Both the position numbers and the translations under genes were made by a program. A model generated the notes under the pieces. It was not told the origin of the DNA, did no database searches, and saw only the letters and a list, made by a program, of their open reading frames with translations. A DNA stretch of 64,000 bases from an uncultured Prochlorococcus sp. (lineage in GTDB: Bacteria > Cyanobacteriota > Cyanobacteriia > PCC-6307 > Cyanobiaceae): assembly GCF_902622435.1 (NCBI RefSeq), contig NZ_CACNQB010000003.1; one strand, 5' to 3'. Of this stretch, positions 13,277 through 53,701 are shown in pieces. Position 1 is the first letter of the stretch. Each line of letters opens with the position of its first letter.

Positions 13277-13375
13277 ATAGCATTTAGGAAGTGCTTAGCT
13301 GGTTAAATCGGTAATCTGAATTAACTAGTTCGTCATGAGCTTGCCTGTGGGATACTTGCAGGCTCTTTCAATTTT
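13277..13375 (+). ncRNA. Candidate ~95-nt sRNA with three hairpins
   Basis: TAAAAT -10 box at 13267; stems AGCATTT/AAGTGCT, AGCTGGTTAA/TTAACTAGTT and GAGCTTGC/GCAGGCTC followed by T-rich sequence. Confidence 0.55.
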
Positions 13376-19156: not shown

Positions 19157-19256
19157 TGCAGCTCCTTAACTTGCTCAAGTCCCCGTCCTATGGCTTGAGT
19201 CGTACTGCGGTCTATCAGATGGTAGATCGGACGATTTTGTAGTATTCACTACAATC
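19157..19256. ncRNA. Candidate structured RNA (~100 nt)
   Basis: About 47% GC by hand count, within AT-rich flanks; stems GCAG/CTGC, CTCAAG/CTTGAG, TCTATC/GGTAGA, TTGTAGT/ACTACAA. Confidence 0.5.
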
Positions 19257-21036: not shown

Positions 21037-21192
21037 ATGAACTCTGCATTTGCAAAAGTCTCAAATTTGAAAGTTAACAGGGCTTCTAAAATAGCTATTA
21101 CTCTCGCATCATCAACTTTCTTTTTGTATGCCTTAGGTCAAGCACCAATTTTTAAAAATATTCTTGCAGGTGCCTTCTCTTGCTCTGGCTAA
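21037..21192 (+). CDS. 51-aa hypothetical protein
   Basis: MNSAFAKVSNLKVNRASKIAITLASSTFFLYALGQAPIFKNILAGAFSCSG. Confidence 0.65.
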   Translation: MNSAFAKVSNLKVNRASKIAITLASSTFFLYALGQAPIFKNILAGAFSCSG

Positions 21193-21237
21193 ATAGAATA
21201 CTGTTTTTTTTGAGAAGCTAAAAAGCTAAAATAGACT

Positions 21238-21288
21238 GTGATTGACAGTCGATCTAAACTTAGAGGGATAAACCCCTCTTTTTTAATG
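21238..21288 (+). repeat. Island repeat module, copy 1
   Basis: GTGATTGACAGTCGATC-TAAACT-TAGAGGGATAAACCCCTCT-T tract-AATG. Confidence 0.9.
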
Positions 21289-21345
21289 TTTAATAGATTT
21301 TTTGCTGTAAAGATAATGACTCTTCTTATTTCTCTTTTTAGCTGA
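21286..21345 (+). CDS. 19-aa hydrophobic micro-ORF
   Basis: MFNRFFAVKIMTLLISLFS; TGATG overlap with the next ORF. Confidence 0.35.
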   Translation: MFNRFFAVKIMTLLISLFS

Positions 21346-21461
21346 TGAATATTTCCCCGCACCTATTAATTGATGCTGTGATATTAAGCGCTGCCCTTAC
21401 GATAACATTGGTATTAAGAGCAAAAGGTAATGCTGCCAGAAAAGAAAAAGAAAATAAATGA
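21345..21461 (+). CDS. 38-aa single-TM microprotein
   Basis: MNISPHLLIDAVILSAALTITLVLRAKGNAARKEKENK. Confidence 0.6.
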   Translation: MNISPHLLIDAVILSAALTITLVLRAKGNAARKEKENK

Positions 21462-21598
21462 TTACTAAAGAAGAAGAAAAAGAATTTAAAAAACCTAAAT
21501 TATATAGATTTTGGAACTTTCTTATTTATGGAAGTTCCATAGCTATTGGAGTTTTCTTAGTTTATTTATATTCTGCTTATATTTTTATAAATAAATGA
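21458..21598 (+). CDS. 46-aa single-TM microprotein
   Basis: ATGA overlap; MITKEEEKEFKKPKLYRFWNFLIYGSSIAIGVFLVYLYSAYIFINK. Confidence 0.6.
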   Translation: MITKEEEKEFKKPKLYRFWNFLIYGSSIAIGVFLVYLYSAYIFINK

Positions 21599-21690
21599 CT
21601 TATATCTACGGTATAGCGATTACTTATGGGGTTGTGAGTCTTTTATTGCTTGGTGGGTTTGCATACTTTACTTTTAAAATGAGACGCTAA
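21595..21690 (+). CDS. 31-aa single-TM microprotein
   Basis: ATGA overlap; MTYIYGIAITYGVVSLLLLGGFAYFTFKMRR. Confidence 0.6.
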   Translation: MTYIYGIAITYGVVSLLLLGGFAYFTFKMRR

Positions 21691-22057
21691 TTTTTATATC
21701 TTCTTCAATAAAGATTTATTAGATAAAATTTTTGATTTTTGTAGAGAATATCAACAAGAAATTCCACCTCAAAGGATGGCTGAGATTTTAAGAGGATATA
21801 GAGATAGATTAGATTAATGATAGATAATAGCAGACCTAAGAAGGTATTAAGAGAATAAAATTTCTAGCAAAATTTATACAAATTTTTTTAAATTTGGAAT
21901 AAATTTTTTGAAGATATTTTCCTCGCAATTATTCATAATTTGAGATTTTTTTTTGATCCTTAATCCGTACAATTTTGTTCCTCTTACCGCACACATAAAA
22001 CTTGAAACTTACTATTCAAATGAATTAGAACATAATTGTAGTCAAGGGGTAAGTCTT

Positions 22058-26539: not shown

Positions 26540-26586
26540 GATTGACAGTCGATCTAAAATAAGGGGCATTAGCTCCTTTTTTAATG
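26540..26586 (+). repeat. Island repeat module, copy 2
   Basis: GATTGACAGTCGATC-TAAAAT-AAGGGGCATTAGCTCCTT-T tract-AATG (start of the DUF3804 gene). Confidence 0.85.
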
Positions 26587-27442: not shown

Positions 27443-27495
27443 GTGATTGACATTCGATCTAAACTTAGAGGGATAAAACCCTCTTTTTTTTGATG
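27443..27495 (+). repeat. Island repeat module, copy 3
   Basis: GTGATTGACATTCGATC-TAAACT-TAGAGGGATAAAACCCTCT-T tract-GATG. Confidence 0.9.
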
Positions 27496-53582: not shown

Positions 53583-53645
53583 ATTCACGCTTGGACATCC
53601 TTTCTTTTAAGAATGGGTCTGATATATTCAGACCTACGCGATTAG
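53583..53645 (-). ncRNA. ATPC-type cis-regulatory RNA between subunit a and c genes
   Basis: Perfect GGTCTGA/TCAGACC stem plus CATTC/GGATG and CGC/GCG stems; this position is where the ATPC RNA motif is described in Prochlorococcus. Confidence 0.75.
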
Positions 53646-53701
53646 ATATTTTGCCAGATTACAGACTCTTTGTAAAAGCGTCTGAATGTATTAGAAGACG
53701 G

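Follow-up and report, generated by a model that had tools for sequence, protein, structure and literature searches.

We analysed a window of 64,000 nucleotides (nt) from an uncultured Prochlorococcus sp. (contig NZ_CACNQB010000003.1 of assembly GCF_902622435.1), and in it a block of 405 nt, positions 21286-21690, in which four short open reading frames (ORFs) follow each other directly behind a copy of a repeated module. Three of them, ORF2, ORF3 and ORF4, are genuine genes, with clear signs of purifying selection. We read the block as a polycistronic micro-operon of high-light Prochlorococcus, expressed as a coupled chain from a promoter within the module, assembled from cassettes, and encoding membrane microproteins specific to this clade; we give this reading a probability of about 0.7. 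The locus is then an uncharacterised operon, and not a new kind of system. The chain is composed as follows.

21286-21345, + strand: ORF1, 19 amino acids (aa), sequence MFNRFFAVKIMTLLISLFS; TGATG join to ORF2, the stop TGA (21343-21345) and the ATG of ORF2 having one A in common.
21345-21461, + strand: ORF2, 38 aa; ATGA overlap with ORF3.
21458-21598, + strand: ORF3, 46 aa; ATGA overlap with ORF4.
21595-21690, + strand: ORF4, 31 aa; last in the chain.

A first-pass annotation, made from the letters of the window, had reported this series of 19, 38, 46 and 31 aa joined by TGATG, ATGA and ATGA without spacer DNA, and its coordinates were reproduced here. The repeat that it placed directly 5' of the chain is real as well: it belongs to repeat family D2, with copies at 21216, 26516 and 27421. 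No pair among the four peptides has significant similarity, and they are not paralogs of one another.

The evidence for ORF2 to ORF4 comes from the comparison of relatives. The source is a high-light Prochlorococcus genome of 1.5 Mb (GC content 25-30%), and its nearest relatives include MED4, MIT9515, MIT9312 and AS9601. The window and 58 species-level homologs (59 sequences) made up the alignment set, and parsimony changes per site were counted on their tree. Ratios of nonsynonymous to synonymous differences (pN/pS) were pooled over 16 relatives, and presence was counted over 63 complete genomes (completeness ≥95%). Flanking DNA has accumulated 7.3-7.5 changes per site and the repeat module 3.2-3.9; the values are 1.96 for ORF2, 1.79 for ORF3 and 2.97 for ORF4. 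At codon positions 1, 2 and 3, changes numbered respectively 60, 42 and 122 in ORF2, 81, 57 and 103 in ORF3, and 64, 53 and 150 in ORF4. The pN/pS was 0.13 for ORF2, 0.23 for ORF3 and 0.29 for ORF4, against 0.9-2.6 in their off-frames. Lengths are also retained, with 38 aa for ORF2 in 49 of the 59 sequences, 46 aa for ORF3 in 51 and 31 aa for ORF4 in 53; the ATG of ORF2 is kept in all 59, and most of its length variants are in-frame changes in the Lys/Glu tail. This excess of third-position changes, together with the low pN/pS and the kept frames, demonstrates that ORF2-4 are real protein genes under purifying selection, as expected from the earlier proposal that the frames were not fortuitous.

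A region of 651 nt is found in most relatives. The 405-nt block itself has matches in 219 of the 285 genomes of the genus, mostly without length change, and its position is syntenic in more than 150 species-level genomes. Matches to ORF2 were found in 56 of the complete genomes (single copy in all but one), to ORF3 in 55 (mostly single) and to ORF4 in 57 (at most 4 copies). The taxonomic range is narrow: ORF3, sought in 36 genera of the family, was found in one genus and absent from the 35 others, and a search for the locus in 24 other families of the class gave no match. ORF3 belongs to the family of EU99_1626, a hypothetical protein of MIT 9321, with 377 clusters; among the 120 listed, E values reach 3e-22 and most members are exactly 46 aa long. 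ORF2 falls into the PMED4_09621 / P9301_15961 family, and matches MED4 (G015) at 816334-816447 with 87% identity. This homolog, PMED4_09621 (MED4 816334..816450), is a microarray-detected ORF of "genomic islet 3", for which Table S2 gives the homologs P9301_15961, P9215_16321 and A9601_16141 (Steglich et al. 2008, PMC2518516).

Each of the four peptides had been credited with one hydrophobic helix. This was retained for ORF2-4, which have stretches of membrane length flanked by basic residues; ORF1 is marginal, with a 10-residue uncharged tail only. ORF2 opens with the decapeptide MNISPHLLID, in which P5, H6 and D10 are invariant and the other positions nearly so, and its hydrophobic segment of ~19 residues (HLLIDAVILSAALTITLVL) leads into a basic C-terminal tail of charge +4. 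In ORF3, a charged N-terminus precedes an uncharged stretch of 28 residues that forms a single long aromatic-rich helix. ORF4, from a dispersed family that can be multi-copy (MYGIAITYGVVSLLLLGGFAYLTFKM), has KMRR behind a stretch of 27 residues. From these features, ORF2-4 are predicted to insert into the membrane as single-pass microproteins, with a topology that would alternate along the chain (N-out/C-in for ORF2, N-in/C-out for ORF3). The alternating topology, the ORF2 decapeptide with its membrane Asp, and small-xxx-small motifs are compatible with helix-helix binding, either mutually or to larger complexes. We propose with moderate confidence that the block encodes small membrane proteins of accessory or modulatory function, specific to the clade. 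The invariant His of ORF2 was considered as a heme ligand, by comparison with cytochrome b559, and discarded because ORF2-like paralogs on contig C1 of the same genome have Phe at this position. There, at C1:53145-53240 and C1:57077-57163, two peptides of 28-31 aa (MNLNTFLLIDGSLM...) carry the N-terminal motif MN..LLID of ORF2, and each has an ATGA join with a 63-aa ORF that precedes it; they may be distant ORF2 paralogs. Identity between these loci is 83%, and a tRNA-like 3' end at ~C1:56780 precedes the second.

How exceptional is the chain? We counted chains of ATG-initiated ORFs of 19-60 aa with -1 or -4 overlaps on both strands, using as controls the reversed genome and five Markov-3 simulations. 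Only one four-ORF chain, that of the window, was found in the genome, and none in the reversed genome or in the five simulations. Controls contained 2-11 three-ORF chains and 120-300 two-ORF chains each, and ~0.1-0.3 four-ORF chains are expected per genome. Three consecutive overlaps had earlier been called unlikely by chance; the chain by itself is unusual but not decisive, and conservation is the stronger evidence. Two other three-ORF chains from the scan, at C1:53012 and C1:56944, were set aside as frame artefacts, each being a 63-aa ORF coupled to one of the ORF2-like peptides mentioned above.

Wherever the block is found its overlaps are kept, and the loss of overlaps among homologs that the first-pass annotation had named as grounds for rejection was not observed. 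For ORF2-ORF3, and likewise for ORF3-ORF4, end and start coordinates are shared in 40 or more of the 63 complete genomes. Of the 59 aligned sequences, 54 have TGATG or TAATG where ORF1 meets ORF2, and at least three of the other five are rescued as ATGA by a TGATGA double stop. In the window, TGATGA (21343-21348) is a double in-frame stop of ORF1, whose first stop is mutated to TCA or TTA in relatives; ORF1 then ends one codon further on, the junction becomes ATGA, and the overlap survives. No Shine-Dalgarno sequence was found before any of the four cistrons. All lie on the same strand, with overlapping AUGA or UGAUG stop/start signals kept in relatives, and thus have the geometry expected for translational coupling. 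Such stop-start overlaps are the classic arrangement for termination-reinitiation.

The repeat in front of the chain is a module of ~48 bp. From 5' to 3', it contains a near-palindrome GATTGACAGTCGATC, a TAnnnT hexamer, a G-rich hairpin and a T-run, after which an ATG lies 40-48 nt from the core. Its elements and copies are the following.

21240-21254, + strand: near-palindromic core GATTGACAGTCGATC, 15 bp, with 3.2 changes per site where the flank has 7.3; invariant in the module.
21255-21260, + strand: putative -10 box TAAACT; other copies have TAAAAT, TAGACT or TACACT, all of the form TAnnnT.
21262-21285, + strand: hairpin AGAGGG/CCCTCT and T-run, scored as terminator-like.
21240-21285, 26540-26584 and 27443-27490: module copies in the window.
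C1:55178, C1:55525, C1:58738, C4:224, C4:1498, C4:44112 and C4:44455: module copies elsewhere in the genome (G000).

The module pattern is present in 14 copies in the window genome and 15 in MED4, and the reversed-pattern control gave none. In total, 80 distinct copies were gathered, with the ATG at a fixed short distance. Pairing of the hairpin is kept in other copies by alternative stems (GGGGC/GCTCC, GGAGC/GCTCC, GAAGC/GCTTC, GGGGC/GCCCC). Genes driven by the module include those for DUF3303, DUF3804, cupin, cupredoxin-like and DUF1651 proteins.

With the hexamer taken as a -10 box, transcription starts were predicted 25-27 nt after the first T of TTGACAGTCGATCTAAA, before comparison with the tables of MED4 5'-triphosphate starts from Read et al. 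2017 (PMC5607370). The following mapped starts are found in these tables at module copies.

358183, - strand: 16 nt upstream of PMM0377 (PMC5607370).
359627, - strand: 17 nt upstream of PMED4_04151 (PMC5607370).
359991, - strand: 20 nt upstream of PMM0379 (PMC5607370).
1347115, + strand: 16 nt upstream of PMM1401 (PMC5607370).

The MED4 starts fall 7-9 nt after the module hexamer. They lie just after the 5' arm of the hairpin, so that the full hairpin is not in the mRNA. The module behaves as a promoter, combined with a predicted intrinsic terminator for RNA reading through from upstream. Its core GATTGACAGTCGATC is probably a protein-binding site, predicted ~20 bp upstream of the transcription start, and sharing of this palindrome suggests that one regulator governs an island-wide regulon. 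Two other readings of module elements were discarded. A TTGACA as -35 box would lie only 7 nt from a TAAAAT hexamer and 22-27 nt from mapped starts, and the role of mRNA 5' stabiliser does not suit a hairpin whose 5' arm precedes the mapped starts. In MED4, 17 nt separate the mapped 3' end of the small RNA Yfr11 from a perfect module copy downstream of it (358573-358589, - strand). No start is mapped at the offset predicted for this copy, and a very strong one is found 52 nt further along, at 358512. A literature search with locus tags and the palindrome sequence retrieved no paper.

Expression of the block might proceed as follows. By homology to the MED4 copies, transcription would start inside the module at ~21267-21269, from the -10 box TAAACT and with no -35 box, probably under the control of a regulator bound to the conserved palindrome, while the hairpin and T-run of the module would insulate the operon from upstream read-through. 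The mRNA leader would be ~18 nt long, pyrimidine-rich (AUAAACCCCUCUUUUUUA) and devoid of a Shine-Dalgarno sequence. Ribosomes would load at the 5'-proximal AUG of ORF1, and termination-reinitiation at UGAUG, AUGA and AUGA would carry them from cistron to cistron, giving linked yields of ORF2, ORF3, ORF4 and, probably, the peptide of ORF1. On the evolutionary side, the block would have been put together from independently mobile cassettes, with ORF2-ORF3 as the stable core, ORF1 as part of the promoter module, and ORF4 and a dead fifth frame (ORF5, see below) as additions.

Several observations weigh against this scheme. A mapped start was found at the predicted offset in just 4 of the 14 MED4 module copies checked, and the degenerate copy that precedes ORF1-ORF2-ORF3 in MED4 has no start in the MED4 tables. 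Reinitiation coupling is proposed from the geometry of the overlaps only. Searches of Pfam, NCBIfam, PADLOC and PHROGs returned only sub-threshold noise (for example NDUF_B12, E 0.025) and no homolog of known function, and a PDB sequence search with ORF2-4 found no chain at E values up to 10. Lastly, ORF1 is constrained (3.1 changes per site), yet its orthologs show no excess at third codon positions (72, 53 and 53 changes), and it may be constrained as RNA or DNA, and not as a peptide.

This last point leads to an alternative for the first cistron, in which ORF1 is not a gene but a 60-nt untranslated leader conserved as RNA or DNA, ORF2-4 alone being translated and initiation at ORF2 being internal. 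Besides the even spread of changes over codon positions among the 59 orthologs, the pN/pS of 0.74 over the 16 relatives and the small size of the peptide, 19 aa with a 10-residue hydrophobic tail, speak for it. However, the ATG of ORF1 stands where other module copies place established start codons, 16-20 nt from the mapped start. The frame is open at 19-20 codons in 53 of the 59 orthologs, and also in at least 8 paralogous copies ahead of different genes. Divergent paralogs differ mainly by synonymous changes, with a pN/pS of 0.31 in frame against 0.81 and 1.36 off-frame. In addition, the stop of ORF1-family members abuts, nearly abuts or overlaps the next ATG. We therefore consider an untranslated leader a real possibility, though the less probable one, and translation of ORF1 somewhat probable on these sequence patterns. 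ORF1 is best described as a conserved 19-codon first cistron that moves with the repeat, and its coding status is less certain than that of ORF2-4. Indeed, the 19-codon family (MDKRFIAEKIMTLIISLIG) opens other module units, as first cistron before unrelated genes in other genomes. At the loci L035, L036, L037, L039 and L031, the genes behind leaders of this family include those for MKRLLL... proteins, secreted or in the membrane, as well as one for a membrane peptide of 31 aa and one that resembles ORF4.

The first-pass annotation had left two explanations for the block, a small hetero-oligomeric membrane complex or accreted cassettes. In its strict form, the first states that ORF1-4, or at least ORF2-4, are obligate subunits of one complex whose stoichiometry is fixed by the overlaps. 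The tight coupling is in its favour, with the order ORF2-ORF3-ORF4 kept by 40 or more of the 63 complete genomes, as are purifying selection on all of ORF2-4, the alternation of predicted topologies and the presence of small-xxx-small packing motifs. Moreover, MED4-like and MIT9312-like genomes alike have ORF2 and ORF3 as neighbours that overlap by ATGA.

The composition of the block in other genomes tells against such a complex. MED4 has the repeat with ORF1, ORF2 and ORF3, all overlapped, and in MED4-type genomes a DUF1651 protein comes where ORF4 would be; the ORF4 of these genomes is found in island 1, preceded by a gene of the ORF5 family and another of 61 aa. ORF4 directly follows an ORF1-like leader in G016, and a coiled-coil peptide or a DUF3804 protein in other genomes; its relatives, in at most 4 copies, sit in unrelated operons. 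ORF2 occurs without ORF3 in G028, G029 and G065, and conversely, in MIT9515, ORF3 lies behind a chimeric ORF2 remnant. In five of the 63 genomes (G004, G086, G077, G140 and G197), the ORF3 frame is broken by internal stops, with the adjacent ORF2 and ORF4 open. Wherever arrangements differ, the sequences part ways at the start codon of the downstream gene. Parts that are found apart, with other partners, favour the accretion of micro-gene cassettes, which fits better than a four-subunit hetero-oligomer. An obligate complex of four subunits is unlikely, because relatives of ORF1, ORF4 and ORF5 sit with other partners elsewhere. ORF2 and ORF3 are the only constant pair, and possibly interact.

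One may go further, and propose that the module, often with the 19-codon leader ORF, is a portable "expression socket" for swapping micro-gene cassettes in island operons. Cassette junctions lie exactly at start codons or at the module T-run. The proposal is tentative, and we think it rather doubtful. If true, it would amount to an integron-like mix-and-match without recognisable integrase or attC, placed under one regulator through the palindrome, and the four-ORF block would be a frozen product of it. Steglich et al. 2008 (Table S2, PMC2518516) list a similar coupled chain in island 5 of MED4 near module copies, where the small ORFs PMED4_16131, 16122 and 16121 overlap at 1353048-1353606 (- strand), and more generally trios of overlapping orf1/orf2/orf3.

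Behind ORF4, a frame without start had been pointed out. It exists, reads KDLLDKIF...DRLD, and has its stop at 21815-21817.

21696-21817, + strand: ORF5, a decayed copy of the PMED4_04151 family (MSSSMKDFLDKFFDLCREYQEEIPPQKMAEVLRDYADRLDG), 41 aa, soluble, with both ATGs destroyed.

The first ATG has become ATA at 21696-21698, and the second has lost its G between 21709 and 21710. Many relatives have TTTTTATGTCCTCTTCAATGAAAGA here, which gives MSSSMKDFLDKFF...DRLDE, that is, the PMED4_04151 family. ORF5 was compared over 19 relatives (as was ORF0, below): an ATG is present at the second position in 9 of them, six with an intact frame, and one more is intact with TTG; the remaining relatives have start loss, frameshifts, stops or deletions. 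The region changes faster, at 4.6 changes per site. In MED4 and elsewhere, an intact gene of this family stands directly behind its own module copy; PMED4_04151 itself is a microarray-detected short mRNA of MED4 island 1 (Steglich et al. 2008, Table S2, PMC2518516). ORF5 is a gene in decay and not a separate oddity, and the T-run before it looks like a module remnant marking an old cassette joint.

Searches for function also bear on a different explanation, in which the peptides damage membranes, as type I toxin-like, holin-like or leaderless multi-peptide bacteriocin products kept for defence, competition or addiction. Short hydrophobic single-helix peptides with basic ends would suit this role, the island around the locus is variable and has many mobile-element scars, and toxin-antitoxin pairs were proposed by Steglich et al. 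for other peptide RNAs of MED4 islands. Nevertheless, the PADLOC and PHROG profiles place the block in no known anti-phage defence system or phage gene family, and phage genomes searched by DNA and by tblastn with ORF2-5 gave no match. The lack of mutual paralogy among the four peptides is unlike multi-peptide bacteriocins. In MED4, a minus-strand start opposite the homolog (816.1-816.9 kb) is absent from the four MED4 tables, an observation that concerns the homolog only. ORF2 and ORF3 are near-core, mostly single copy and syntenic in more than 150 species-level genomes, which is unusual for addiction or warfare modules. This conservation and the missing antisense start in MED4 argue against a toxin or warfare role, which we hold to be very unlikely. 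Membership among the small subunits of photosystems, cytochrome b6f or NDH was not supported either, as there is neither PDB or Pfam similarity nor conservation across cyanobacteria.

The block is embedded in a region, from ~3 to 32 kb of the window, in which nearly all ORFs are short, as is typical of a variable island. Its nearest upstream neighbour is another such gene.

21037-21192, + strand: ORF0, a microprotein gene of 51 aa with one helix and a 21-residue uncharged stretch; 14 of 19 relatives have it intact at this length.

ORF0 carries its own AT-rich -10-like sequence, and is another micro-gene that looks unannotated. We consider it a separate unit, from which read-through would be halted by the repeat hairpin. 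Rfam matches above gathering score in the window are a Glutamine-II riboswitch at 19174-19236 (- strand), Yfr20 at 13278-13364 (+ strand) and an ATPC motif at 53586-53676 (- strand).

No phototroph on Earth is more abundant than Prochlorococcus, and much of the variation among its strains resides in islands full of unannotated micro-genes. The present block indicates that such island micro-frames can be real, strongly selected and near-universal in the high-light clade, and that a shared promoter module can head coupled chains of them. Databases already list the genes as hypothetical proteins, and a transcript of the ORF2 homolog was reported in 2008; what is added here is the coupled architecture of four cistrons, the leader ORF, the promoter/terminator nature of the repeat and the pattern of reshuffling. 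Functional work now has as targets three membrane peptides, one leader peptide and one putative palindromic operator, plus the regulator of the island-wide regulon.

Known systems resemble the block in part. In cyanobacteria, psbEFLJ (cytochrome b559, PsbL and PsbJ of photosystem II) consists of four co-transcribed tandem genes for single-helix proteins of ~40-80 aa. It shares with the block a tandem of four single-helix membrane protein genes; the block, however, has no similarity to solved chains, is confined to one genus, is dispensable in some strains, and varies in its partners. Small membrane subunits from operons whose stops and starts overlap (KdpF in kdpFABC, CydX in cydABX, regulators of the AcrZ type), of less than 50 aa and with one helix, are translationally linked to their neighbours and bind larger membrane proteins. 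The block is like them in small size, single helices and overlapped cistrons, but encodes micro-genes only and no large partner. Type I toxins (TisB, Hok, Ldr, Fst) have a similar size, hydrophobicity and a basic end, whereas the block is polycistronic, near-core and syntenic, with no sign of an antisense RNA at the MED4 homolog. Closer in sequence are the small island ORFs of MED4 (PMC2518516), which include the ORF2 ortholog PMED4_09621, at 87% identity, and the family of the dead ORF5, PMED4_04151; they form a catalogue of transcripts only, without four-cistron coupling, leader ORF, shared module, partner reshuffling or function. The closest comparison in kind is SliP4 of Synechocystis, one of the lineage-restricted thylakoid microproteins that are tiny, narrow in range and not recognisable by homology, and that modulate large membrane complexes (PMC11848123). 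SliP4 is encoded by one cistron where the block has several, and the products of the block would most likely belong to this same functional class.

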